Positions 5,130 through 20,554 of a DNA stretch of 58,537 bases are shown here, piece by piece. Below the pieces are notes generated by a model. It saw only the letters and a program-made list of their open reading frames with translations, made no database searches and was not told the origin of the DNA. The stretch is from Gemmatimonadota bacterium (GTDB lineage Bacteria > Gemmatimonadota > Gemmatimonadetes > Gemmatimonadales > GWC2-71-9): the NCBI GenBank assembly GCA_024641735.1, contig JAHECN010000002.1, positions 1 through 58,537 on the forward strand. Reading direction: 5' to 3'. The translations under genes and the position numbers were made by a program. Position 1 is the first letter of the stretch; each line of letters starts with the position of its first letter.

Positions 5130-5340
5130 CGGGACCTCCGGGAACGAGAGAAGAGGAAAGAGAGAGGAGAGAAGCTGTTGGGAGAAGCTTGGCCGTAAGG
5201 CACCGCTTGCTCAAGTCCCTCCCCTCACTCCTCTTGACGCATCCCCCCATCGCCGATACTCTTCCGCCACAATCGATCGGCCCCGTGGTCATTTGCCGCT
5301 GCTTGCAGCCACGTTAAACAAATGCTAAAGTGCTCACTAC

Positions 5341-5371
5341 GCCTGGCGGCGCATTCCGCCCAGGCGTTTTT
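5341..5371 (+). terminator. Intrinsic-terminator-like hairpin 1 in the metX leader
   Basis: GCCTGGCGG / CCGC(C)CAGGC stem (9 bp, one bulge) with a 6-nt loop, followed by G then TTTTT. Confidence 0.55.
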
Positions 5372-5410
5372 CGCGTCTTGGGACTTTGGTGAACCGAGGA
5401 ACTGCACACG

Positions 5411-5506
5411 ATGACGCACCACGCTGCTCGAATTCTCATGCGAATGATTCGGATGACCGGCGCTCCCTTGGGAGAGACGGACGGGCAGCTGCGCATCTCC
5501 GCGTAG
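5411..5506 (+). CDS. Candidate leader peptide MTHHAARILMRMIRMTGAPLGETDGQLRISA (hypothetical)
   Basis: ATG 5411 is preceded by GAGGA, 10 nt upstream. There are 31 codons, with Met at positions 1, 10, 12 and 15 (ATG CGA ATG ATT CGG ATG). The stop codon is 30 nt upstream of terminator hairpin 2. The frame differs from metX. Confidence 0.3.
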   Translation: MTHHAARILMRMIRMTGAPLGETDGQLRISA

Positions 5507-5535
5507 CCTCAACCAGCCGACACACTGTCGGCGCG

Positions 5536-5578
5536 GCGCCCCGGCCTCTCTTCGGAGAGGGCCGGGGCGCTTTGCATT
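5536..5578 (+). terminator. Intrinsic-terminator-like hairpin 2 in the metX leader
   Basis: GCGCCCCGGCCTCTC-TTCG-GAGAGGGCCGGGGCGC (15 bp, one bulged G, UUCG loop), followed by TTTGCATT. It lies 27 nt upstream of the metX ATG. Confidence 0.6.
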
Positions 5579-5604
5579 GCCACCCTGACGCACAAGAGGA
5601 CCTG

Positions 5605-6594
5605 ATGTCATTGCCCACGTTGTTCCGGCGGACTGCCGCCGATCGAAGTGCACGCGCGCCTGTGCCCGTCGTGCCATCCCACCATGGCGGGATCCTGGAT
5701 CTCACCACTGTTCGAGTCGAGGACCACGGCAACCCTCATGGTCCTGTGATTGTGGTCTTGGGCGGGATTTCCGCCAGCGGTCATGTCGCGGCGCACGCGG
5801 GGGATCCCAGCCCAGGATGGTGGGACGAGGTGGTGACCGTGGGTGGAGCGATCGACCCTGCCCGGTATCGCGTGCTGAGCATCGATTGGGTGACGGTGTC
5901 TGGGCATCCGGTGGACTCGCGGGACCAAGCGCGCGCCCTCGCCCACGCGCTCGACACGTTGGGAATTACTGCGGTCGACGCCATTGTCGGTGCCTCCTAC
6001 GGTGGCATGGTCGCGCTCGTGTTCGCTGCCCTCTTCCCCGCACGAGTGGGCCAGCTCATCGTGCTGTGCGCCGCACACGAAAGTCATCCGATGGCCACGG
6101 CGTGGCGCACCATTCAACGCGGCGTCGTGCGGCTCGGTATCAAGAGTGGTAGGGCACATGAGGCGGTGGCGCTCGCCCGCGCCCTGGGCATTGCGACCTA
6201 TCGCACGGCCGAGGAATTCGCCGAGCGCTTCTCACCGGCACCCGCGCGGACGCCAGATGGCTACCGGTTTCCCGTGGAGGACTATCTCGAACACGGGGGC
6301 ACGCGCTTCGCGGTGCGGTGTGAGGCGGAGCGTTATCTCGCGTTGTCCGAGTCGATCGATCTGCATCGGGTCAACCCCGCCGAGATCACGACGCCGATCA
6401 CGCTCTTCGGTGTGGAAGGGGATCAACTCGTCCCGCTCTGGCAAGTACACGAGCTCTTTGGCCAGCTCGCTGGTCCCGGGCGCGTGGTGGAAATCGCGTC
6501 ACGATTCGGACACGATGCCTTTCTCAAGGAAGTCAGCGCTGTTTCCGATTTGATCTCCTCTGCATTGGACCGGGGGGCGCATCATGCCGCGTGA
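5605..6594 (+). CDS. metX: Homoserine O-acyltransferase (MetX family, alpha/beta hydrolase)
   Basis: Start placed at ATG 5605, after the RBS AAGAGGA. The in-frame upstream extension to 5386 contains the terminator hairpin. Nucleophile elbow GASYGGMVAL. Overlaps the next trans-sulfuration gene by 11 nt. Confidence 0.7.
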   Translation: MSLPTLFRRTAADRSARAPVPVVPSHHGGILDLTTVRVEDHGNPHGPVIVVLGGISASGHVAAHAGDPSPGWWDEVVTVGGAIDPARYRVLSIDWVTVSGHPVDSRDQARALAHALDTLGITAVDAIVGASYGGMVALVFAALFPARVGQLIVLCAAHESHPMATAWRTIQRGVVRLGIKSGRAHEAVALARALGIATYRTAEEFAERFSPAPARTPDGYRFPVEDYLEHGGTRFAVRCEAERYLALSESIDLHRVNPAEITTPITLFGVEGDQLVPLWQVHELFGQLAGPGRVVEIASRFGHDAFLKEVSAVSDLISSALDRGAHHAA

Positions 6595-7786
6595 GAGGCA
6601 GTCCTCCGCCACACGTGCGGTCCGTGCCGGAATTGCGACCGACCGCCAGTGCGGTGCAGTCGTCCCACCGATCTACCTGACGTCGACGTTCGCGTTCCCT
6701 GCCTTCGGCGTGAAGGGACGGTACGACTACTCCCGATCCGGCAACCCGACGCGAGATCAACTCGCCGAGGCTATTGCCGAACTGGAAGGTGGTGCGGCCG
6801 CTGTGATCACCGCGTCCGGCATGGCGGCGGTCACGCTCGTGCTGCAATTGGTCCAGCCGGGTCAACTGGTCGTTGCGACGCACGACTGCTATGGCGGGAC
6901 GCATCGACTCCTGACACACCTCGCCCGGCGCGGGCATTTCGAGGTGGCGTTTGTTGATTTCGCAGATCCCCTCGCGTGGCACGCCGCGTTGGTACGCCGT
7001 CCTCGGCTCGTGTGGGTCGAGACGCCGAGTAACCCGTTGCTTCGGATTACCGATGTGCGCGCCGCCGCGGCGTCGGCGCATGCCGTTGGTGCCCTCTGCG
7101 TGGTCGACAACACCTTTCTCTCGCCGGCGCTCCAGCAGCCGATCGCGCTCGGCGCAGACATCGTGGTCCATTCCACGACGAAGTACCTCAACGGCCATAG
7201 TGACGTGGTCGGTGGCGCGGTGGTCGCAGCCGAACAGGCCCTCGCAGAGGAGTTGGGGTGGTGGGGGAATTGCCTGGGCCTGACTGGGGCGCCGTTCGAT
7301 GCATTCCTGACGCTCCGGGGGATCCGGACATTGCACGCCAGGATGCGCCTGCATGAGGAGAATGCTCACGAGGTCGCGACTGCGCTGTCGGCGCATCCGT
7401 TGGTAGCCGAGGTCCACTATCCTGGGCTCCCATCCCATCCGGGACACGGGCTGGCACGCCGGCAGCAACAGGGATTCGGGGCGATGGTCTCGTTCGAAGT
7501 ACGGGGCGGGATGCGGGCGGTGGAGGATGTCGCCACTGGCCTCGAGCTGTTCACGCTCGCGGAATCGCTCGGGGGCGTTGAGAGCCTGATCGCGCATCCC
7601 GCCACGATGACCCATGCCGCGATGGACCCTGAGGCGAGGCGCGTGGCTGGCATTCGCGACTCGCTCCTGCGACTGTCTGTCGGGATCGAAGCGGCAGACG
7701 ACCTCGTCCGGGATCTCCTCCGGGCCCTCGATGGCGTGGCGGGACGATGCGGCCTCGCGGAGGTCTCGGCGGCCCATGCGGGCTAG
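6584..7786 (+). CDS. Cys/Met-metabolism PLP enzyme (cystathionine gamma-synthase / O-acylhomoserine sulfhydrylase family)
   Basis: 400 aa. Starts TRAVRAGIATD. The PLP-lysine motif is HSTTKYLNGHSDVVGG, with SLGGVESLI near the C-terminus. Translationally overlapped with metX. Confidence 0.85.
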   Translation: MPRERQSSATRAVRAGIATDRQCGAVVPPIYLTSTFAFPAFGVKGRYDYSRSGNPTRDQLAEAIAELEGGAAAVITASGMAAVTLVLQLVQPGQLVVATHDCYGGTHRLLTHLARRGHFEVAFVDFADPLAWHAALVRRPRLVWVETPSNPLLRITDVRAAAASAHAVGALCVVDNTFLSPALQQPIALGADIVVHSTTKYLNGHSDVVGGAVVAAEQALAEELGWWGNCLGLTGAPFDAFLTLRGIRTLHARMRLHEENAHEVATALSAHPLVAEVHYPGLPSHPGHGLARRQQQGFGAMVSFEVRGGMRAVEDVATGLELFTLAESLGGVESLIAHPATMTHAAMDPEARRVAGIRDSLLRLSVGIEAADDLVRDLLRALDGVAGRCGLAEVSAAHAG

Positions 7787-12066: not shown

Positions 12067-12858
12067 CTACTGGGGAAGCGAGCTGGTTGCCCTAGGTTCT
12101 CCATTCAGCCAGACGCCAAGCGAGAGCGTGCGCTCCCGGGCGGTGTTCTTCCCGGACACGCCACCGTAGTAGCCCGCCTGCAACCCGACGCCCTTCGATA
12201 CCCGGAAGACCGCTGAGCCTCCCAGTTTGGTAGCGCTGTACGCCAAGCCGCCATCCTGAAACGCGGCGACATTGAACGCCTGCGCCATGATGAGGAGACG
12301 TGGCGCGGCGTCGAGGCCCACCGTGAGATCGTAGCGAATCTCTCTCGCGCCGGTGCGCCAGACCGATCCTCCCGCGGCGGCGGACAGGAAGCCGCGACGC
12401 CCGAGAGCTCCAAAGCCGGTGCCATAGAGCAGTCGGAGGTCGGTGTCGCTGCTGACCGGGCCCAGAACCGGACGGGCCTTCGTGTCATAGAGCAGGGGTA
12501 GGTCCACGCGTCCCTGAATGGAGACGATGCCACCGCGTCCTTGGGCGATCCGCTTCATCACGAAGAGGCCCGTGGCGCCAAAGCCCGTGGTCACCTGTGA
12601 GGTCCCGTTGCGCTTGTCTTCAAGGCGCGCAAATCCCTGTCCCATCCCGATGCTCAGGCCGTCGGCCAAGCCGTAGATCGCGTACATCCCCCAATCCAAC
12701 TTCTCGAGTGCATTCTCCGTCGCGCCCGGCCCGCTCGAGAAGCGATCCGGGAAGCGCCCCGAGTTGAACCCATGCGACATGAACCAGCCGCCGGGCTGCA
12801 CGGTCCATTGCGCCGCGAGCGACGCAGGAAGCAGCAGGAGGAGAAGAAACGTCTTCAT
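12067..12858 (-). CDS. Signal-peptide protein, outer-membrane beta-barrel candidate (last gene of the EPS-like locus)
   Basis: MKTFLLLLLLPASLAAQ signal peptide. Alternating hydrophobic/polar G/Y/S-rich segments run throughout. 4-nt overlap with the upstream gene. Confidence 0.45.
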   Translation of the reverse strand: MKTFLLLLLLPASLAAQWTVQPGGWFMSHGFNSGRFPDRFSSGPGATENALEKLDWGMYAIYGLADGLSIGMGQGFARLEDKRNGTSQVTTGFGATGLFVMKRIAQGRGGIVSIQGRVDLPLLYDTKARPVLGPVSSDTDLRLLYGTGFGALGRRGFLSAAAGGSVWRTGAREIRYDLTVGLDAAPRLLIMAQAFNVAAFQDGGLAYSATKLGGSAVFRVSKGVGLQAGYYGGVSGKNTARERTLSLGVWLNGEPRATSSLPQ

Positions 12859-14249
12859 CGCAGCAGTCCTCGAGCAGGAGGGGCAATCGCGGCACTGAAC
12901 CGGACGGGGAGTCGTGGGGCGTTCGGAAGGCGATAGAGCGTGTATCCGCTCCAGCTCCAGTCTTCCACGAACCCGGCCGGTGGGTGTCGCGCCGCATCGA
13001 GGCTCAACCCGTCCGCATCTTCCGTGACCAACACGTACTGGACTGCCTCGCGCGGCATGCCGACCGCGAGATCAAAGCCGATGTCCCGCGTCGTGAGATA
13101 CGCATCGAGCGAAGGGACCCATTTCAGCAGCCCGTCGGCACGCCGATCGTCGACCAGGATGCTCCGCGGTGGCGCAACCGCCAGCGCCTGCGCGACGGCA
13201 CGGTCTCGACGGTCGGCATCACTCGGTGTCGGCAGTGGGATGAACCACCAGGAGGCCACTGCCTGTCCAGCGGCGAGGACGACGAGGGACCAACGCTGGA
13301 GCCGCGATACATCGCGTGGGAGTGCCACGATCGCGACCAGCATCAGCAGCGTCGCCGCGAACGCGAGCGAGAAATGCCATCCGGTTTGTGTTGCGGCGGC
13401 GAGGAGCAGGAACGGCAAGAGCATTCCCGCCGTCGTCGCCTTCGGACGGACGAGCGCCGCCGCGGAGACCACCAAGTACGGAATGGTCCAGCGAAGAAGT
13501 TCGAGGATCGCCGGTGAGTCGCGTTCCCACGGCGTGAAGGGGAATGCCACGCGGCCTGTGAACACCCACGAGAGATAGGCCCACGTGACGGTCGCGGCGA
13601 ATCCCGGGAACACCAGCAATACCATCTGCGAGGCAAACGGCGGGATCTGCAAGCGCGGAAAAAGTACGGGCAGGATCGCGCCGGCAATCAGCGCCAAGCC
13701 GAGACCGAGCGGAGAGCTGTAGAAGGCGAGTCCGAGCCAGAGGCCGGTGTACAGTCCGTGAATCGTGCGCCGCGTGGACCACCAACGGCGGTAATGCCGC
13801 CAGCCGACAAAGAGTGCCGCCAGTCCGAGCGCCTCGTTGAAATTGCCGGCCGTGAAGTGGAGGCCGAGGGGCGTCCAGAGGATGGCGAGCAACAGGAGAT
13901 ATGGCAGAATGGTACGTCGCGAGGTGCACTCGTCGACGACGTACCACGCCAGTCCCATGAGACCGAATGCACCGAGCGCGACGGCCCAGTAGTCGGTTGG
14001 CGAGGGCAACAGGAGCAGGAAGGGGAGCGGCGGGTACTCGAATCCCAACAACTCCAACCGACCACGATCCGCGGCGAATAGCACGCGTTGGATGAAGGCG
14101 CCGTGCGGATCACTGCGCCATCCCTCCCCGATCAGCAACCACGCGGCGACCGCCGGCGGCAGTGCCGCCAGCAGAGCCAGGGTCGCCCGCACCCACCGCG
14201 GCGCGCGCGGCTCAGTGGGTAGCGGCGGCGGGGTGGCGGGTGAGACCAT
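12855..14249 (-). CDS. Polytopic inner-membrane protein with C-terminal soluble domain (GT-C/ArnT-PMT-like suspected), paralog of 18136..19680
   Basis: More than 10 hydrophobic helices are followed by a roughly 110-aa hydrophilic tail. ATG at 14249. 38-nt overlap with the GT2 gene. The tail resembles that of the 514-aa protein by eye. Confidence 0.5.
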   Translation of the reverse strand: MVSPATPPPLPTEPRAPRWVRATLALLAALPPAVAAWLLIGEGWRSDPHGAFIQRVLFAADRGRLELLGFEYPPLPFLLLLPSPTDYWAVALGAFGLMGLAWYVVDECTSRRTILPYLLLLAILWTPLGLHFTAGNFNEALGLAALFVGWRHYRRWWSTRRTIHGLYTGLWLGLAFYSSPLGLGLALIAGAILPVLFPRLQIPPFASQMVLLVFPGFAATVTWAYLSWVFTGRVAFPFTPWERDSPAILELLRWTIPYLVVSAAALVRPKATTAGMLLPFLLLAAATQTGWHFSLAFAATLLMLVAIVALPRDVSRLQRWSLVVLAAGQAVASWWFIPLPTPSDADRRDRAVAQALAVAPPRSILVDDRRADGLLKWVPSLDAYLTTRDIGFDLAVGMPREAVQYVLVTEDADGLSLDAARHPPAGFVEDWSWSGYTLYRLPNAPRLPVRFSAAIAPPARGLLR

Positions 14250-16059
14250 GCGTGGTCTTCTCCCAGTAGTAGGGGCGAGTGAAGAGCTGTCCGAGCGCCT
14301 TGTAGGCCGCGATCGAGTGCAGGACCCAGTAGAACGGATTCAGCAAGGAAAAGAGCACCAGTCCGTGCAATCCCCGCCGGAAGACCGCGAACATGTTGAT
14401 GTAGATCGCCAGGGCATTGCCCAACAGGAGATTGAACAACGAGAGGTACAGAATGATCGGCGGAAAGAGCGGGTCGAGTGCTGTGGTCCGCGTGATGACC
14501 CAGCCAATCGTCAGCAGGACGGAGATGGGTTGGAGCAGGAAGATCAACGGCGTGCCGGCGATCAGCAGGGTGAAGCCGAGTGTTTGGCGGAGCCCAGCGC
14601 GTCGCACCAATCCCATGGGATCGCGCGAGAAGACCAACGCCGTCTGCATATACCCTTTGATCCAGCGCGAACGCTGCCGAATCCAGTTGCCGACGTTCTT
14701 GTTCGCCTCCTCAAAGGTCGTCGAGTTCACGATCCCGACACGGTAGCCGTGCATCGCGGCCCGAATGCCGAGGTCGGCATCTTCGGTGACATTGAATGGG
14801 TCCCAGCCCCCGAGATCGCGCAGCACTTTCGTCTTGAAATGATTGCTGGTGCCCCCGAGCGGAATCGGCATGCGCAACTTGTCGAGCCCAGGGAGCAGGT
14901 AGTCAAACCAGAACGAATACTCGAGGGTAAACATCCGAGTGAGGAAGTTCTCGCTCGCGTTGTAATAGTTCAGCGCGGCCTGCAGGCAGACCAGTTCGGC
15001 TGGCCCACGACGGAAGGCCAACACCGCCTTCTTCAATTGGTCCGACTCGGGTTGATCCTCGGCGTCATAGATCACCAGATACTCACCCAGTGCGAACAGC
15101 AGTCCGACGTTGCAGGCCTTCGGCTTGGTCTGGGGTTGCCCTGCCGGCACCACGAGAATGCGGACGTTGGCCCCTGGCGCGGCGGCTTTCGCGGCGGCGA
15201 GCGTCGAGGGGTCATCTTCTTCCAGCAAGAGCAGGATGTCGAGCTTGTCTGCTGGATAATCCAGCGCCTTGAGGGAGCGGAGCAGCTGGGGCAATACCGC
15301 AGCTTCCCGGTAGGCGGGGACGAGGATGCTGTAGATCGGCAGATCGCGCTCGTCGAGTGCTCGGAGCTCGTCGGCGGTGACCGAGACCGTCGTTTCGGAG
15401 GCCGCGCCGCTGATGCCAACCACCGTCCGGAAGATGATGACGGTGAGAAAGAAGATGGTGATCGGGACATTGATCGCCAGAAGGGTCGCGTACGGCGCGG
15501 ACCAGAGCCCAGCCAGAACCAGGATGATCAACGCGCCGAAGAGCACGTACTGCGGCAATGTGAACACCGTGAAGGCGGATTCGGACTGGTCCCGGAAGTA
15601 GAGGCCGTAGATCGAGGCGTCGACGACCTTCCGCCGATTCGCGAGTCCAATCGCCTGGTCGATGTCCCATTCCGTGGTGACGCGAATGTCCAGCGTCCGG
15701 CCGGGATACACCACGGCCAAGGTCTCACGTAATTCGGCAGTGGGAGCGTCGGCCACGGCAACGGTGAGCGTCGTGCCGTCGTCGCGCAGTGGCACGGCGC
15801 GGAAGCGCATCGTGGCATCGAGCGGGAAGCGTTGCGCCACCGCAGGGACCAGCGCCGTGTCGGTGATCGTGATGAACGGCAGGTTCCAGAGATCCGCCAA
15901 GGCCCGACCGAGGTCGAGTCGACGAATGAATCCCAGAATCAACAGCAATCGACCAAGCCGCTCGCCGGTCCGCTCCTGTTGCTGGAGCGCGACGGCGAGC
16001 TGTTGCTCAGTGATCAGACCTCGCTGGACGAGGTATTCACCCAGCCGGATCGAGCTCAC
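14212..16059 (-). CDS. Processive family-2 glycosyltransferase (synthase) with N-terminal MshEN / T2SSE_N c-di-GMP-binding domain
   Basis: GTG start at 16059. Residues 5-57 form a tandem 24-aa MshEN motif: RLGEYLVQRGLITEQQLAVALQQQ - ERTGE - RLGRLLLILGFIRRLDLGRALADL. GT2 motifs are YDAEDQ, TEDADLG and QRSRW. There are 2 TM helices before the catalytic domain and about 4 after it. Confidence 0.85.
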   Translation of the reverse strand: MSSIRLGEYLVQRGLITEQQLAVALQQQERTGERLGRLLLILGFIRRLDLGRALADLWNLPFITITDTALVPAVAQRFPLDATMRFRAVPLRDDGTTLTVAVADAPTAELRETLAVVYPGRTLDIRVTTEWDIDQAIGLANRRKVVDASIYGLYFRDQSESAFTVFTLPQYVLFGALIILVLAGLWSAPYATLLAINVPITIFFLTVIIFRTVVGISGAASETTVSVTADELRALDERDLPIYSILVPAYREAAVLPQLLRSLKALDYPADKLDILLLLEEDDPSTLAAAKAAAPGANVRILVVPAGQPQTKPKACNVGLLFALGEYLVIYDAEDQPESDQLKKAVLAFRRGPAELVCLQAALNYYNASENFLTRMFTLEYSFWFDYLLPGLDKLRMPIPLGGTSNHFKTKVLRDLGGWDPFNVTEDADLGIRAAMHGYRVGIVNSTTFEEANKNVGNWIRQRSRWIKGYMQTALVFSRDPMGLVRRAGLRQTLGFTLLIAGTPLIFLLQPISVLLTIGWVITRTTALDPLFPPIILYLSLFNLLLGNALAIYINMFAVFRRGLHGLVLFSLLNPFYWVLHSIAAYKALGQLFTRPYYWEKTTHGLTRHPAAATH

Positions 16060-18106
16060 GCCGCACCACCCTCGGGTAGAACCACACGAGAAGGCCGACG
16101 ATCAGCAGCCCCGCCAAAATGAAGAGAACCGTGCGATAGCGCGCCCACCAACTGGCAGCGTTTTCGGGGAGTTGCTCCAGCCGCCATCCCGCGTTCGCCA
16201 ACGTCAGCGATCGTGCTGGGCCATCGACGCCGCGGATCACCAGGTCGCCGCGTGTGCCGAACCAGCCGTAGGGTGCGAGGGTTTCGTCGAGCAACTGGAG
16301 CAGCGGGGCACCCTCTGCGCCGGTGTGGTGGAGCAGGAGAATGTCGCGGCCACCGGCAGACCATCCCTGCATCGTCGCATAGGTTGTGCTGGGCGAGAAT
16401 TCGTCCCAGACCTTGCCGTCACGATCCCGCAGACGGAAGCCATCGGAATGAATTGGCGCCTCAAGGACATCCGCGAGATGACTGGTCCCAATTGCCAGGA
16501 GTGGACCGACGGCCTCTCCCGCGTCCCGTGCCACCGCGGGTGCGAGCGGAGTGCGCGTGGTCTGCTGCATCGCGCCGATCGTCTGGGCCGCCAATTCCAC
16601 GCGGAAGCGATCCATTGGATCGAGTAGCACCGAGAACGCGGGGATGTACGCGGACGGGAAGCGACCGAAGCCCGGAGGGAGGGCATTGGCGCGATCCGTC
16701 ACAAACGAGGACGAGGGGTCGATCGTCGCAGTGAACACCGCACCACCCAACACGCAGGCACCCTCGCCGAGAACCACCTGGAATCGCACTTCGAGCACAT
16801 TGTCGCGCAGCAGCAGGTGCGACGGGAGGGGAACCACGACGTCGAGGGACGAGCGTTCAAGGGTTCGGGAGTAGACGAGCGCGCCGTTGAGATGCACACG
16901 CAACGATCCGTTGCCAGCCGGCGGCAAGACGGAGTGCTGTACCACGAGCCGGAGCGCCGAGGGGATCGTCGTCCCTCCGAGGTCGGCGAGGGCGAACGGG
17001 TATGCGGCACTCATCAGTGTCGCCCCTTCGACGGTGCGACTCGGGAAGCCAAGCGTCTCGAACGTCACCGTCCCGGCACCACCGACCGGAGCATTGTGGT
17101 CGAGCGAAGCGGTCGTCCCGCTGAACCCGGGAGCGGCCACGACGGCATCGCCATCGGCGAGCGTGAAGAGCTGCCTGGCATCACGCCGTGCGGCGATCGC
17201 GAGCATGGTGCCCGCGGAACTATCCGAGCGCAGGAGTTCCGTGGTCCCGGTCGGCGACCAGACCAGGGCGCGCGCAAAGGGCCCCGGCTCCGTCATCGGT
17301 GTGCCAGCCGGCGGAAGAGGGCGAATGAGGAACTTGGTGCTCATGCCGCGATAGCGGCGCCCCATGAACGCGGACGCATCCAGCGCGGCTTGTGCGGCGT
17401 CGCGGCTTGGCAGGTCGGCGACGTAGAACGTGACCGATTCGAGCCAGGGCTCGAAGAATCCATTGACCGTCGTGGGCGGCCGCGGTGCACCGCTATAGGT
17501 GATCGCGCTCGACGGATCGATGACCGTGCGATAGTACCGCTGCGCCTCGCACACATCCCGGCCCGGCACCATCAGTCCGAGCGTGAGCGTCGCACGCCCA
17601 TCATCCGCGCGAATCTGCTGCAGCGGAAGCGAGAGCGACGAGGTGGTGTCCGTCAGCGCGCGCTGCGCCAGAATCCGGTCGCGCTGCATCAGCACGAGGG
17701 TCGCAGCGGGCATCCCTGGAGTCGGAATGAGGCGCAATTCCAAAGCGGTCGGTGTCAGCCCGCTGTTGACGGGAAGCGTGATTGTGGCCTGGTCAGAAGA
17801 GCCATTGAGCGTGAATCCGGATGCGTAGCCGATGTCTTGGAGCGAGAGGGTCAAGGCCGTTGACTCGGTGGTGAGCCAGTCACTGGCAAGCCCACGGGGG
17901 CTCGGGCGGTACTCGCCGCTCCCGTTTCCGCCGCTGTCAACGCGTGCTGGCGCCGCTGCGGCAAGCGAATCAACGACTGCTGGGGTCGGAGCCGCCGGTA
18001 CGTCGACTTGCTCCGTGTCGGGCCCTTGGCCGCACGCTGCGAGGATGGTGAGCCCTGTCATCAGGGTCGCCAAGGGAATCCGCATTGGGTTCATTCGCGT
18101 CTGCAT
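16037..18106 (-). CDS. Periplasmic lipoprotein with single C-terminal TM anchor, BcsB-like synthase partner (putative)
   Basis: Start placed at ATG 18106, after the strong RBS GGAGGAAGG. MQTRMNPMRIPLATLMTGLTILAAC signal with lipobox. About 640 aa periplasmic, with two similar ...L..L.V.LNG... modules. C-terminal TM VLFILAGLLIVGLLVWF. 23-nt overlap with the synthase gene. Confidence 0.55.
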   Translation of the reverse strand: MQTRMNPMRIPLATLMTGLTILAACGQGPDTEQVDVPAAPTPAVVDSLAAAAPARVDSGGNGSGEYRPSPRGLASDWLTTESTALTLSLQDIGYASGFTLNGSSDQATITLPVNSGLTPTALELRLIPTPGMPAATLVLMQRDRILAQRALTDTTSSLSLPLQQIRADDGRATLTLGLMVPGRDVCEAQRYYRTVIDPSSAITYSGAPRPPTTVNGFFEPWLESVTFYVADLPSRDAAQAALDASAFMGRRYRGMSTKFLIRPLPPAGTPMTEPGPFARALVWSPTGTTELLRSDSSAGTMLAIAARRDARQLFTLADGDAVVAAPGFSGTTASLDHNAPVGGAGTVTFETLGFPSRTVEGATLMSAAYPFALADLGGTTIPSALRLVVQHSVLPPAGNGSLRVHLNGALVYSRTLERSSLDVVVPLPSHLLLRDNVLEVRFQVVLGEGACVLGGAVFTATIDPSSSFVTDRANALPPGFGRFPSAYIPAFSVLLDPMDRFRVELAAQTIGAMQQTTRTPLAPAVARDAGEAVGPLLAIGTSHLADVLEAPIHSDGFRLRDRDGKVWDEFSPSTTYATMQGWSAGGRDILLLHHTGAEGAPLLQLLDETLAPYGWFGTRGDLVIRGVDGPARSLTLANAGWRLEQLPENAASWWARYRTVLFILAGLLIVGLLVWFYPRVVRRELDPAG

Positions 18107-18135
18107 CGGTCCTTCCTCCGTTCCGTCATGCGGCC

Positions 18136-19680
18136 TCAACGACGCCGCCAGATCTCCAGTCCACCCTCAGCAAATCGTCGTTCAAATCGTTCCTGAAAAG
18201 CGACCCGGTCCACGATCGCCTCGGTCACCACGTTCGGTTGGGCTCGAGTATCTACGACCACCCAATCCACGACCTCTTCCGGTGTCGCCAAAGCTGCTGG
18301 CCCAAGCTCCCACGACCAGCTGTAGATCCGATCGCGCAGCGCGATCCGGCTTCGCGGCGAGATGTTGACCATCTGGTCGACCAGAACCCGCCCCCCGTCG
18401 TACTCTGCCGCCAGCCAATCCGACGCGTGTTGCTGGCGCGGATCACCGTCGCGGATTGCCAATCCCTCGCGCAGGGCGCCAATGTGGGCGGTCCCCGCAT
18501 AGCTCCAGAGGCCGAATTGGGCCACGATCACTGCTCCAAGAGCGAGGAGCGTGCCCCGTTGCCAGATTCCGCCACGCCGGAGGCCTCGGGATGCCACCAG
18601 GGCGATCGCGACGGCCACGGCGGGCAGGAGCATCACCCCGTAGCGCAGGTTGGCGACTCCCGGTGGGACGCTCCAGGGAAGGGAGATCGCGCTCTGGCCG
18701 CCCCAGAGGGCAAGGATGTTGAACGGCAGGGCGGCGAAGAGGAGAAGTGCCCCAGCAAAGCGCCGGGAGTGTCGCAGGAGTACGAGGATGGCCAGGAGCC
18801 CAACAACGGTCAGGAGCATCCCCACCGTCAGCCCGGTCGCGCCGAGGTAGGTGGTCGTGGCCAGCAGGGGATGGCCCTTGGTGGGCAGGAGGCCCTGCGC
18901 GGCCAAAGCCGTTTGCTGGCTCTGGGCGGACCACGCACCGCGCTGAAATTCGAGTGCGTCCCCGAAGTAATAGGCGTTGTACCCCAGCCACGCGGCGACC
19001 ATCGCGGCGCTCGGCCACGCAAACCGCCAGGAAGCCCGGAACCACCCCGTCCTGCGGGCGTGGGCCACCCAGGCCACGACCGGGACCGCGATCACCACGT
19101 AGAACCAGCCATCATATCGAGAGCCGACCGCCATCGCTGCCAGCACCCCCGACCACCGGAGGGCACGCGCACTGCCGTCCTCGGCCCAGCGATCAAGCGC
19201 CGCGACAGAGGTTGTCATGAACGCCAGGAGCAGCGGCTCCGTCATCCCGGTGGACTGGAGGTAGAGCAGACTGGGGTTCGCGACGACCAGCAGGGTGCCG
19301 ACCCAGGCAAGCTTGGGATGACCCGTCCGTCGAACCAGGAGATCGTGCACGGCGGCTGCGGTCGCCATGAAGGCGCAAATTCCGAGGATGCCACCGGCGA
19401 CGCCGTTCCACCACCAGGCGTCAACCATCGTGAACGGAATCATCAGGAGGTGCGGAACGGGGAGCCAGACGGTCCCGAGCATCTGGATGCCGGGGGTCAA
19501 GGAGTCGGTGACCCGCCGGGCGATATCAAGGTGCGCCTGCGCGTCCCAAAAGGCGAAGACCACACCCGCTTGATGCGCCCAGATCTGGGCCACGAGGCCG
19601 AGCACAAACGCAACGAGGCCGGCCATCATGGCCGGCCTCAATGAGCCGTGTGCCTCCACGGAGTTGGTCGGTTCAGACAT
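18136..19680 (-). CDS. Polytopic inner-membrane protein with C-terminal soluble domain (GT-C/ArnT-PMT-like suspected)
   Basis: ATG at 19680. About 12 hydrophobic helices. The first loop contains FWDAQAHLD. The hydrophilic C-terminal roughly 110 aa resemble the tail of 12855..14249. 8-nt overlap with the PEP-CTERM gene. Confidence 0.5.
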   Translation of the reverse strand: MSEPTNSVEAHGSLRPAMMAGLVAFVLGLVAQIWAHQAGVVFAFWDAQAHLDIARRVTDSLTPGIQMLGTVWLPVPHLLMIPFTMVDAWWWNGVAGGILGICAFMATAAAVHDLLVRRTGHPKLAWVGTLLVVANPSLLYLQSTGMTEPLLLAFMTTSVAALDRWAEDGSARALRWSGVLAAMAVGSRYDGWFYVVIAVPVVAWVAHARRTGWFRASWRFAWPSAAMVAAWLGYNAYYFGDALEFQRGAWSAQSQQTALAAQGLLPTKGHPLLATTTYLGATGLTVGMLLTVVGLLAILVLLRHSRRFAGALLLFAALPFNILALWGGQSAISLPWSVPPGVANLRYGVMLLPAVAVAIALVASRGLRRGGIWQRGTLLALGAVIVAQFGLWSYAGTAHIGALREGLAIRDGDPRQQHASDWLAAEYDGGRVLVDQMVNISPRSRIALRDRIYSWSWELGPAALATPEEVVDWVVVDTRAQPNVVTEAIVDRVAFQERFERRFAEGGLEIWRRR

Positions 19681-20422
19681 CCCGTGCTGCTGCGAGGCGA
19701 CGCTTCTTCCGCGCGGCCGCGAGTCCGATCAGGCCACTCCCCAGCAGGGTCATCGTGGCGGGCTCGGGAACGACTTCGGTCGGCGGCGAGATGTCGTCGG
19801 GGCGAAGAGTAAAGATCGCGTTGTCAAAGTCCCAGTCGCTGTGCTCGTAGCCGACGTCCTCGAATCCGAACGCAAGCAATCCCTGGGTTCCGGGAATGAT
19901 GCCAACCCCTTGGTTTCCGGCGACACCAGCTGTCCCGAAATATGCCACGTGGGCGAGTTGGTCGTAGTTGCGCGTCGGATCACCGGAGAAGAACCAGAGC
20001 CAGTTGTTGTTCATGTTGACCTGCAACCCGAAAATCACTTCCGTGCCGGGCGTCCACGCGAGCGTGTAGGTCTGCGGTGCCGTCGGGGTCGGGAGGTCGA
20101 GATAGGGGTTGGTGTACGCGCCATAATTCTTCGTGAACATCGCCGTCCCGCCGGAGCAACTGCCGCCAGCCCACGCAAAGCAGGTTCCGCCCGATGCATT
20201 GGCCGAGAATTCAGCCGCCGTGAAGGCCCATACCGTGTGCCCATAGACGGTCGTGTTCTCCCACCCGAAGTAGGAGACGAAGAGGGAGCTCCCAGCGGCG
20301 AGAATCGGACTGCTCATTCCGAAGGTTGGTCCGAACAGTTTGGGATGGTCAGCGCGCAACGGGCCAGCCAGCGTCAGCAGCGCCACGAAGGCGAGCGAGA
20401 TTCGGGTTGTCATGGTACGCAT
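19673..20422 (-). CDS. PEP-CTERM sorting-signal protein with DUF4114-like domain
   Basis: Start placed at ATG 20422 (GAGG 6 nt upstream; MRTMTTRISLAFVALLTLAGPLRA signal). The C-terminus VPEPATMTLLGSGLIGLAAARKKRR is a PEP motif plus TM plus Arg/Lys cluster. The preceding FGFEDVGYEHSDWDFDNAIF resembles DUF4114. Confidence 0.8.
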   Translation of the reverse strand: MRTMTTRISLAFVALLTLAGPLRADHPKLFGPTFGMSSPILAAGSSLFVSYFGWENTTVYGHTVWAFTAAEFSANASGGTCFAWAGGSCSGGTAMFTKNYGAYTNPYLDLPTPTAPQTYTLAWTPGTEVIFGLQVNMNNNWLWFFSGDPTRNYDQLAHVAYFGTAGVAGNQGVGIIPGTQGLLAFGFEDVGYEHSDWDFDNAIFTLRPDDISPPTEVVPEPATMTLLGSGLIGLAAARKKRRLAAARDV

Positions 20423-20538
20423 AAGAGCCTCGGTCATCGGCACCGGAATGGCACCGCCCCCGTCCAAGGAGCAAGGGGGAGGCCAAGCCCGCGGAGACCG
20501 TGGCAAAGTGTTGATATTGCACGTCTTGCGCAACAGGT

Positions 20539-20554
20539 GTTGCCTCAAGGCAAC
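20539..20554. promoter_or_regulatory. Perfect 16-bp palindrome upstream of the EPS-like locus (possible operator)
   Basis: GTTGCC-TCAA-GGCAAC, about 120 nt upstream of the PEP-CTERM gene start, in the 208-nt thrC / locus spacer. Confidence 0.2.

Follow-up and report, generated by a model that had tools for sequence, protein, structure and literature searches.

Does the amino-terminal domain of a membrane glycosyltransferase from a soil-type Gemmatimonadota bacterium (Gemmatimonadales) place exopolysaccharide synthesis under direct control of c-di-GMP? The question is raised by a 58,537-nt stretch of contig JAHECN010000002.1 (the window), in which an XagB/Sfz2-like gene on the reverse strand (positions 14212 to 16059) starts with GTG and encodes a 615-amino acid protein whose N-terminus reads MSSIRLGEYLVQRGLITEQQLAVALQQQERTGERLGRLLLILGFIRRLDLGRALADL. 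An earlier note on this sequence had recognised a tandem MshEN motif fused to a membrane GT2 synthase and had predicted high-affinity c-di-GMP control of polymerisation. Our analysis favours a processive membrane GT2 for exopolysaccharide with a built-in, predicted MshEN c-di-GMP receptor, a reading to which we assign a probability of roughly 0.7.

The tandem motif lies exactly where the earlier note had placed it, between 15889 and 16047, with residue 5 starting at 16047 and residue 57 ending at 15889 (this and all other features described here are on the reverse strand). Motif 1 (RLGEYLVQRGLITEQQLAVALQQQ, residues 5 to 28, positions 15976 to 16047) agrees with the 24-residue consensus at 11/11 fixed positions, a full match as had been claimed. 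The spacer that follows, ERTGE (residues 29 to 33, 15961 to 15975), has precisely the five residues reported initially, a length shared by 72 of 80 family members. Motif 2 (RLGRLLLILGFIRRLDLGRALADL, residues 34 to 57, 15889 to 15960) scores 9/11 against the strict consensus, with misses at F44 and L57. Of these two deviations, both listed in the note, only the replacement of MshE Gln61 by L57 is real. In the alignment, motif 2 of Vibrio cholerae MshE (RLGDTLISLGFLSETQLLNFLAQQ) also has Phe at position 11, which Wang et al. give as (I/F) for that protein; once Phe is allowed, the score becomes 10/11, with L57 as the sole miss. Over both motifs, 21 of the 22 fixed positions are kept. With the window translated in all six frames, a score of 9 or above is reached nowhere else. 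Profile searches gave 46.8 bits with Pfam MshEN PF05157 (cutoff 23.1) and, over residues 5 to 55, 57.9 bits (cutoff 38) with the 53-position NCBIfam model NF053729, named 'c-di-GMP_motif'. Sequence matches to MshE, PilB and PilF have E values from 1e-12 to 1e-24, and the alignment with the MshE of structure 5HTL runs gap-free from residue 5 to 119 (E 2e-12).

The motifs are followed by an alpha/beta subdomain, MshEN_C (residues 58 to 140, 15640 to 15888), which includes D104, paired with MshE Asp108 in the alignment, and the family-conserved residues T128, W131 and D132. An AlphaFold model of residues 1 to 150, a segment predicted to be soluble, has pLDDT 91.6 and comprises helices 6-12, 18-31, 35-41 and 47-58 and then the alpha/beta part. 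Its best Foldseek match is 5HTL, MshE in complex with c-di-GMP (TM 0.66-0.70, 30% identity); c-di-GMP complexes of the PilF GSPII-B domain are also among the best PDB matches, and MshEN/GSPII domains account for all 20 matches with E below 1e-3. The predicted structure thus adopts the MshEN helical fold, as the earlier note had supposed. Judged by sequence and predicted fold, the domain is a genuine MshEN.

The rest of the protein is, by sequence and model, a processive membrane GT2 synthase with a fold resembling those of BcsA and hyaluronan synthase (HAS). Past a linker predicted with low confidence (residues 153 to 155 have pLDDT below 50 in the full-length model), two N-terminal transmembrane helices (about residues 165 to 210, 15430 to 15567) precede a cytoplasmic GT-A-type GT2 catalytic domain (about residues 240 to 470, 14650 to 15342) carrying D332-A-E-D, T425-E-D and Q462-R-S-R-W. 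A C-terminal bundle of long helices with hydrophobic, transmembrane segments (residues 481 to 594, 14278 to 14619) is followed by a conserved WxKTxH sequence (residues 599 to 604) that is also found in NfrB. DAED, TED and QRSRW are invariant in all 78 aligned family members, save for R465, kept in 77. Pfam GT2 families match the protein, and five hydrophobic transmembrane segments were identified. The full-length model (pLDDT 86.3, pTM 0.86) retrieves with Foldseek BcsA (4P00, E 2e-14), HAS (8SMM and 7SP7, E 1e-13) and Chs1 (E 1e-8). Processive-synthase motifs and the BcsA/HAS-like fold therefore uphold the claim that MshEN is fused N-terminally to a membrane synthase. The Pfam scan found no PilZ domain in the protein, in line with the proposal that an N-terminal receptor domain is present where BcsA has a C-terminal PilZ. 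Two names were considered for the protein and rejected: BcsA, since PilZ is lacking and the CelA/BcsA equivalog scores fall far below cutoff (TIGR03030, 51.8 against 699; NF008558, 37.6 against 992), and NfrB, since the domain order is reversed and the NfrB equivalog model NF008411 (cutoff 1170) yields 45.1 bits, with the MshEN part alone matching.

How tightly could such a domain hold its ligand? All six Leu residues and both Gly residues of the ligand cluster are retained. By reference to the MshE and PilF structures and to NfrB, the four-helix bundle of residues 5 to 57 would bind one extended c-di-GMP, with likely contacts from Leu6, Leu21, Leu25, Leu35, Leu50 and Leu54, from the backbone amides of Gly7 and Gly36, and from Arg5, Arg34 and Gln28. 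In MshE, Gln61 makes two hydrogen bonds, both of which would be lost with L57. The position is the one altered in MshE Q61A, a change that weakens binding 11.8-fold, to 5.9 uM; in PilF, Q218E makes binding 77-fold weaker. From the MshE value, the missing Gln would be predicted to cost about 10-fold. Because Leu57 replaces the second Gln, the affinity is more likely to be low-micromolar than nanomolar, and the high affinity of the predicted site is, by this analogy, not assured.

The synthase gene belongs to a cluster whose first gene, as conserved in Gemmatimonadales, encodes a 291-aa PEP-CTERM protein (19673 to 20548). Next come a PMT_2-like membrane protein of 514 aa (18136 to 19680) and a BcsB-like partner of 700 aa (16037 to 18139), which has a lipoprotein-type signal (LAAC) and is anchored in the membrane by its C-terminus. 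The latter scores 30.2 bits with PF03170, and ten out of ten of its homologs exceed the BcsB cutoff. Downstream of the synthase lie genes for a polytopic membrane protein of 464 aa (12855 to 14249), distantly PMT_2-like and matching no Pfam family, and for a secreted 263-aa protein (12067 to 12858) with a signal peptide and likewise no Pfam family. The secreted protein is a possible outer-membrane component, since one of its homologs gives a weak DUF5777 beta-barrel hint. Direct BLAST between the 464-aa and 514-aa proteins is weak (E 0.003), but hhalign on clean alignments is strong (98.2% probability, E 4.7e-14, 417 columns), and we thus accepted the two as full-length paralogs at the profile level. 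Hydrophobic drift, considered as a cause of the convergence of their profile searches on the same ORFs, was set aside on the same result. Searched against a large database, the 464-aa protein matched only 'hypothetical proteins' of Gemmatimonadales, none of whose names led to XagC or Sfz3. When co-occurrence of the fusion with its neighbours was surveyed, as the note had suggested, a BcsB-like gene was found upstream of the synthase in 43 of 70 related loci, and in at least 52 of 76 the synthase gene was directly followed by one for a 464-aa-type membrane protein. The small secreted protein, too, is part of the conserved cassette. The cassette of MshEN-GT2, BcsB-like and membrane protein recurs across more than 10 phyla.

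Other elements of c-di-GMP signalling were sought in the window. No GGDEF, EAL or HD-GYP domain was detected by Pfam in 46 gene products, a set comprising all but a few small ORFs. At the level of sequence motifs, neither GGDEF nor HD-GYP turned up, and the loose matches to the EAL pattern, few in number, all fall in Pfam-scanned proteins that have no EAL domain. Rfam detected no c-di-GMP riboswitch in the window. These negative results count against the receptor reading. A scan of the cluster for promoters yielded no promoter-like site, and terminator-like sites were at or below the shuffle expectation.

In the scheme we envisage, the inner-membrane GT2 would both polymerise and translocate an exopolysaccharide, and its cytoplasmic N-terminal MshEN would serve as c-di-GMP receptor. 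Binding of the ligand would turn the GT2 on, the task that PilZ performs in BcsA, and the synthase would probably cooperate with other products of the same operon, namely its periplasmic BcsB-like partner, one or two PMT_2-like membrane proteins and the small secreted protein. Activation by c-di-GMP appears likely by analogy: NfrB shows that a GT2 synthase can be made dependent on c-di-GMP by an MshEN domain. In the literature searched we found no report of c-di-GMP binding by any N-terminal MshEN-GT2. Since the linker between MshEN and the first transmembrane helix is predicted with low confidence, the coupling mechanism is not readable from the model.

The fusion occurs in more than 10 phyla, including Chloroflexota, Aquificota, Bacteroidota, Cyanobacteria, Thermotogae and Synergistota besides Gemmatimonadales, and the motif is not uniformly maintained in the family. 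Taken literally, the relaxed regular expression of Wang et al. is passed by 5 of 80 family members, or by 21 once any final residue is accepted. As this expression fails at single variable positions (e.g. position 11 of motif 2), position scores were used in its place. At 30 of the 80 loci the motif is degenerate (15 or fewer of 22 positions) and the domain is still present, which implies that the domain must also have a role independent of c-di-GMP. One may thus ask whether MshEN is here mainly a structural or docking module, as in XpsE/GspE, with an intact motif inherited and of no regulatory use. XpsE has the same fold and has lost c-di-GMP binding, T128, W131 and D132 of the C-subdomain are more conserved family-wide than several ligand positions, and L57 is itself off consensus. 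However, 19 to 21 of 22 motif positions are kept in the window protein and in its relatives from Gemmatimonadales and Chloroflexi, including every hydrophobic ligand contact, a pattern unexpected without selection for binding, and the single Gln substitutions in MshE and PilF weaken binding but do not abolish it. We consider such a mainly structural role unlikely, if the most serious of the alternatives.

Only 8 of 78 aligned family members have Gln as the final residue of motif 2, and the residue that follows, Leu in MshE, is Trp in 45 of the 78; in the window protein, L57 is followed by the family-typical W58. One could imagine that L57 and W58 define a variant MshEN site, with altered affinity or an altered ligand such as 3'3'-cGAMP, and that the cassette is the principal cyclic-dinucleotide-controlled exopolysaccharide machine of PilZ-less lineages such as Gemmatimonadota, making an undescribed polymer. 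This extension is speculative, and we would give it slightly less credit than the structural role. Doubtful to a somewhat greater degree is that the domain binds a cyclic dinucleotide to another end, either preferring 3'3'-cGAMP or some other ligand, or inhibiting or relocalising the synthase. A section of Wang et al. is headed 'MshEN can also bind cGAMP', and the family preferences at and after the last position of motif 2 also speak for it. Against this, the MshEN-type receptors tested all bind c-di-GMP, no sequence feature indicates another ligand, and NfrB, the sole GT2 fusion tested, behaves as c-di-GMP-activated. Finally, that the match arose by chance from the composition of a GC-rich ORF, or that the N-terminus is mis-called and untranslated, as the GTG start and a 23-nt overlap with the end of the BcsB-like gene upstream might suggest, is so improbable that it can be dismissed: by chance, the whole window should contain the strict motif about 3e-5 times, codon-position GC of the ORF (0.62/0.43/0.81) is typical of real genes, and the N-terminus is kept residue for residue in homologs of 44 to 86% identity from more than 10 phyla, all of which begin 0 to 15 residues ahead of the MshEN motif.

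If the synthase is indeed a c-di-GMP receptor, the locus provides Gemmatimonadota with a candidate and readily testable effector. Wang et al. tabulate a single genome of this phylum; it has numerous genes for c-di-GMP turnover and no PilZ, its receptors being of the MshEN type only. The cassette is moreover of the 'xag-like' type, which has been linked to biofilm in Xanthomonas and put forward for stalk formation in iron oxidisers, and given its spread over more than 10 phyla, biochemistry on any member would inform a large family. No new principle is involved. A catalogue of MshEN-glycosyltransferase fusions dates from 2016 and the characterisation of one such fusion, NfrB, from 2021; the window protein adds a member to an architecture already on record.

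That architecture, 'MshEN - Glyco_trans_2_3', is listed in Supplementary Table 4 of Wang et al. (2016), with R. sphaeroides Rsph17029_0522 as the example and X. campestris XCC0678 as a further case; the row gives no experimental reference. The domain order, N-terminal MshEN and then a Glyco_trans_2_3 GT2, is identical to that of the window protein, and the taxonomic range differs: Actinobacteria, Firmicutes and Proteobacteria in the paper, Gemmatimonadales here. The printed 79-residue N-terminal fragment of XCC0678 is below significance in a direct BLAST against the window protein, and matches the N-terminus of another family member, L072, with 47% identity (E 1e-18); a full-length comparison of L072 with the window protein again gives 47% identity. 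With MshE, PilB and PilF the protein shares the tandem 53-residue motif, the four-helix bundle and the alpha/beta subdomain, whereas their output is a secretion ATPase and they have the second Gln where the glycosyltransferase has Leu.

A further known system is E. coli NfrB, of the NfrBA-YbcH system, which carries GT2 and MshEN on one polypeptide, binds c-di-GMP and needs this binding for function. Its MshEN is 29% identical to that of the window protein (E 6e-8). For the glycosyltransferase and transmembrane part, identity is 22% across 434 residues (E 3e-7), a stretch that takes in the terminal W(E/D)KTTH. The MshEN of NfrB is C-terminal, however, and its partners are NfrA, a TPR beta-barrel, and YbcH, in place of BcsB-like and PMT_2-like membrane proteins; no NfrA-like TPR barrel was found in the cluster. 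With BcsA-BcsB the window system has in common the fold of GT2 and transmembrane channel (4P00 being the top Foldseek match), the catalytic signatures D,DxD, TED and QxxRW, and a partner of the BcsB family that is anchored by a C-terminal transmembrane segment. In BcsA-BcsB the activator is c-di-GMP, as would be expected for the window synthase; the receptor is PilZ in one case and, as predicted, N-terminal MshEN in the other.

Xag-like systems, named after Xanthomonas xagABCD, offer another comparison. Close homologs (57 to 74% identical) bear the JGI label 'glycosyltransferase XagB', and xag genes are required for biofilm in rpfG mutants of Xanthomonas. On the strength of published descriptions and homolog names, the cluster can be likened to the sfz/sfb stalk cassette (Sfz2 being known from Mariprofundus), made up of Sfz1 (BcsB-like), Sfz2 (T2SSE_N and GT2) and Sfz3 (about 500 aa). 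Sfz2 has the T2SSE_N-GT2 architecture of the window protein, with TED, DxD and QxxRW, and its gene follows a BcsB-like gene and precedes one of about 1.5 kb. The same succession of BcsB-like protein, MshEN-GT2 and membrane protein of about 500 aa is found in the window, the last place being taken by the 464-aa protein; relative to the xag/sfz cassette, the Gemmatimonadales cluster adds a second PMT_2-like gene and the PEP-CTERM gene. The work on sfz and stalk formation took the N-terminal domain of Sfz2 as EpsE-like, a piece of a secretion ATPase and not a c-di-GMP receptor, and sought RxxD and RxxxR rather than the MshEN motif.

The ORF at 14212..16059 (minus strand) opens with a GTG codon and encodes a 615-aa protein with the N-terminus MSSIRLGEYLVQRGLITEQQLAVALQQQERTGERLGRLLLILGFIRRLDLGRALADL. 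Its residues 5-57, encoded by bases 16047-15889 (minus strand), carry the tandem MshEN motif described in an earlier note, whose coordinates proved exact. The first copy matches 11/11 fixed positions of RLGxx(L/V/I)(L/V/I)xxG(L/V/I)(L/V/I)xxxxLxxxLxxQ, the motif defined by Wang et al. (2016), and is followed by a spacer of five residues (ERTGE), just as the note had it. The second copy conforms to the strict consensus at 9/11 positions. Both departures had been taken as deviations. One of them, L57, is real (Gln61 in MshE); the other, F44, is identical to MshE and does not count, because the Vibrio cholerae protein itself has (I/F) at this position (Wang et al.). Motif 2 of V. cholerae MshE, RLGDTLISLGFLSETQLLNFLAQQ, aligns with the window protein without gaps. 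A chance match is excluded as the explanation of the motif: judging from the protein's own composition, the strict form is expected about 3e-5 times per window, and six-frame translation of the window yielded no second site scoring 9/11 or better.

Three independent profile or sequence methods identify the N-terminal segment as MshEN. Pfam PF05157 scores 46.8 bits (cutoff 23.1); NCBIfam NF053729, a 53-position model named "cyclic di-GMP-binding domain, MshE-related", scores 57.9 bits (cutoff 38) over residues 5-55; and sequence matches in the PDB include Thermus thermophilus PilF (E 1e-23), PilB (~2e-13) and MshE (5HTL, 2e-12). Residues 1-150 were modelled with AlphaFold2 from 19 family sequences (pLDDT 91.6); the model has helices at 6-12, 18-31, 35-41 and 47-58 and then an alpha/beta subdomain. 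When this model was compared to the PDB with Foldseek, the first match was 5HTL, MshE with c-di-GMP (TM 0.66/0.70, 30% identity, 140 columns), and the next were c-di-GMP complexes of PilF GSPII-B; all 20 matches with E <1e-3 are MshEN/GSPII domains. The predicted structure thus speaks against the possibility, raised in the note, that the segment lacks the MshEN fold. We regard both domain and fold as established.

Four elements of the MshE structure hold the ligand: two triangular Leu clusters (motif positions 2, 17 and 21), the backbone amides of the position 3 Gly, stacking by the position 1 Arg and hydrogen bonds from two terminal Gln residues; Asp108 contacts one guanine. The window protein keeps R5, L6, G7, L21, L25, Q28, R34, L35, G36, L50 and L54, and its D104 aligns to Asp108, leaving the second Gln as the only ligand-holding residue absent. 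The MshE Q61A variant has a KD of 5.9 uM, 11.8-fold weaker than wild type, and PilF Q218E, 77-fold weaker, still binds at 460 nM. Binding of c-di-GMP by the window protein is accordingly expected, whereas high affinity is not assured and seems improbable.

Downstream of this domain, Pfam places Glyco_trans_2_3, Glyco_tranf_2_3 and Glycos_transf_2 over residues 243-526. Signatures of processive synthases are found (D332-A-E-D, T425-E-D, Q462-R-S-R-W), and hydrophobic segments lie at 165-183, 192-210, 498-516, 535-553 and 567-585. A full-length model (pLDDT 86.3, pTM 0.86), in which the linker between MshEN and the first transmembrane segment is poorly predicted at residues 153-155, is closest to BcsA in Foldseek (4P00, E 2e-14), with further matches to vertebrate and Chlorella-virus hyaluronan synthases (E ~1e-13) and to yeast chitin synthase. 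These enzymes couple polymerisation and translocation in one step. Pfam finds no PilZ domain in the window protein. Altogether, the Pfam matches, the GT2 signatures and the BcsA-like model bear out the proposed fusion of MshEN to a membrane GT2 synthase without PilZ.

Six co-directional genes, overlapping or closely spaced and all on the minus strand, span 12067-20548; the synthase gene is the fourth. The first encodes a PEP-CTERM protein (19673-20548), conserved at this place in Gemmatimonadales loci; then come a 514-aa PMT_2-like membrane protein (18136-19680) and a BcsB-like protein of 700 aa that carries a lipobox and, at its C-terminus, a TM anchor (16037-18139); its gene and the start of the synthase gene overlap by 23 nt. 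The last two genes encode a 464-aa polytopic membrane protein of no Pfam or NCBIfam family (12855-14249) and a 263-aa secreted protein with a signal peptide and no Pfam or NCBIfam match (12067-12858). The BcsB score of the 700-aa protein is weak (30 bits); its homologs from other phyla are above the BcsB cutoff in 10/10 cases. At the profile level, the 464-aa and 514-aa proteins are paralogous over their full length (hhalign 98.2%, E 4.7e-14); they flank the BcsB-like/synthase pair, and their PMT_2 similarity is marginal only. One homolog of the 263-aa protein gives a weak hint of DUF5777, "membrane bound beta barrel". A strong hairpin at 19614-19640 (minus strand; 12-bp stem, 9 G-C pairs, then a T-rich tail) lies directly past the PEP-CTERM stop, where the 514-aa ORF is annotated to begin; homolog alignments of this ORF mostly start near residues 10-16. 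The PEP-CTERM gene may be transcribed separately, and translation of the 514-aa ORF may in fact start at Met18 or Met19.

Genes flanking the cluster are housekeeping: upstream, those for aspartokinase-homoserine dehydrogenase, homoserine kinase and threonine synthase (threonine pathway); downstream, that for an ABC-F ATPase. The window yielded neither a c-di-GMP riboswitch nor any gene of the GGDEF, EAL or HD-GYP type, and those of its genes that were scanned include no exosortase. A SAM-II riboswitch (5275-5349, plus strand; Rfam RF00521 "SAM_alpha", full-length, 42.5 bits, gathering score 36) directly precedes an alpha/beta-hydrolase ORF (5386-6594, plus strand), whose product could be a MetX-type homoserine acyltransferase, and an ORF for a Cys/Met PLP enzyme (6584-7786, plus strand; PF01053, E 7e-142). 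RF00521 is named for Alphaproteobacteria; the window appears to be Gemmatimonadales.

Relatives of the synthase number thousands in the protein database. The closest are from Gemmatimonadales MAGs (74-86% identity), followed by Truepera, Oceanithermus, Thermomicrobium and Anaerolineae (56-61%). Nearly all matches listed combine PF05157 with GT2 families, and several bear the JGI name "glycosyltransferase XagB". At least 552 stretches in species-representative genomes code for a relative; the family counts on loci refer to the best 80 of these, from Gemmatimonadota, Chloroflexota, Bacteroidota (including Rhodothermales), Aquificota, Desulfobacterota, Actinomycetota, Thermotogae, Synergistota, Cyanobacteria, Firmicutes (Sporomusaceae) and Proteobacteria. 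Since every one of the 80 alignments starts at query residues 1-16 (and reaches the C-terminus where the contig is intact), the family includes the N-terminal domain. All six cluster genes are conserved in Gemmatimonadales. The BcsB-like gene lies directly upstream of the synthase in 43/70 loci with enough flank, and is missing from actinobacterial loci; a homolog of the 464-aa protein lies directly downstream in at least 52/76 loci, in most phyla. Homologs of the 263-aa protein (24/59 loci with enough flank; Aquificota, Desulfobacterota, Cyanobacteria, Proteobacteria, Pedobacter and Synergistaceae among others) are often encoded between the BcsB-like gene and the synthase.

All 78 aligned members share the catalytic residues, except R465 (77/78). 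The motif varies more widely: of 22 fixed positions, at least 19 are kept in 31 of the best 80 loci, 16-18 in 19 and 15 or fewer in 30, notably in Mucilaginibacter, Pedobacter, several cyanobacteria and Microbacteriaceae. At 21/22, the window protein belongs with the best-conserved members. Motif 2 ends in Leu in 25/78 members and in Gln in 8/78 only, and the residue after it is Trp in 45/78. About a third of the family, the loci with 15 or fewer positions, has kept the domain with the c-di-GMP motif mostly lost and the catalytic motifs invariant. Scores of 12/22 or less occur in related loci L031, L036-L037, L040, L045, L052-L056, L059-L060, L063-L064, L066-L071, L073-L074 and L076-L080; the BcsB-like neighbour is retained in 18 of the 23 at this level. 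Because the domain is kept while the motif is degenerate, these sequences imply that it would have a second, c-di-GMP-independent role. A W-x-K-T-x-H sequence (residues 599-604; 14248-14265, minus strand) is present in 77/78 members and is common to Escherichia coli NfrB, where it directly precedes the MshEN domain. D132, which belongs to the sequence TTEWD where the MshEN_C subdomain ends, is found in 76/78 members; T128 and W131 are each the most frequent residue at their site (45/78 each). W-x-K-T-x-H and residues 128-132 may form a sensor-synthase interface.

Most likely, with a probability that we put at about 0.7, c-di-GMP would bind the N-terminal four-helix bundle and thereby allosterically activate the BcsA/HAS-like synthase, which would work with the BcsB-like partner. 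Here binding, affinity and direction of control are extrapolated from MshE, PilF and NfrB. The main rival, in which MshEN would chiefly be a docking or structural module, draws on the many members with degenerate motifs and on XpsE; we consider it unlikely. A different ligand, or regulation of a different sign, seems a slightly poorer prospect still. The observation in the earlier note stands, and its reading is supported with caveats: one deviation against the two claimed, and an affinity that is probably not high.

Several known systems resemble this one. The xagABCD operon contributes to Xanthomonas biofilm, and an "xag-like" cassette has been put forward as the stalk-EPS locus of iron oxidisers; it is made up of Sfz1 (BcsB-like), Sfz2 (T2SSE_N+GT2), whose MshEN motif went unrecognised by those who described the cassette, and Sfz3 (~1.5 kb). 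The EPS cassette is very widespread, the Gemmatimonadales example included, and c-di-GMP control of it is predicted. In the literature searched, we found no paper measuring c-di-GMP binding by an N-terminal MshEN-GT2 protein. NfrB binds c-di-GMP via MshEN, and requires both that binding and the GT active site. Both of its modules align with the window protein in swapped order (MshEN, 29% identity; GT plus TM, 22% over 434 residues), and the two proteins share a W(E/D)KTTH end. The alignment of Wang et al. (2016) includes Xanthomonas campestris XCC0678, with an N-terminal motif; its fragment is 47% identical to the N-terminus of the family member at locus L072. Supplementary Table 4 of the same paper has both "Glyco_trans_2_3 - MshEN" (E. 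coli NfrB) and "MshEN - Glyco_trans_2_3" (Rhodobacter sphaeroides Rsph17029_0522; Actinobacteria, Firmicutes, Proteobacteria). The architecture of the window protein is already catalogued, and the Gemmatimonadales protein adds one member to it.
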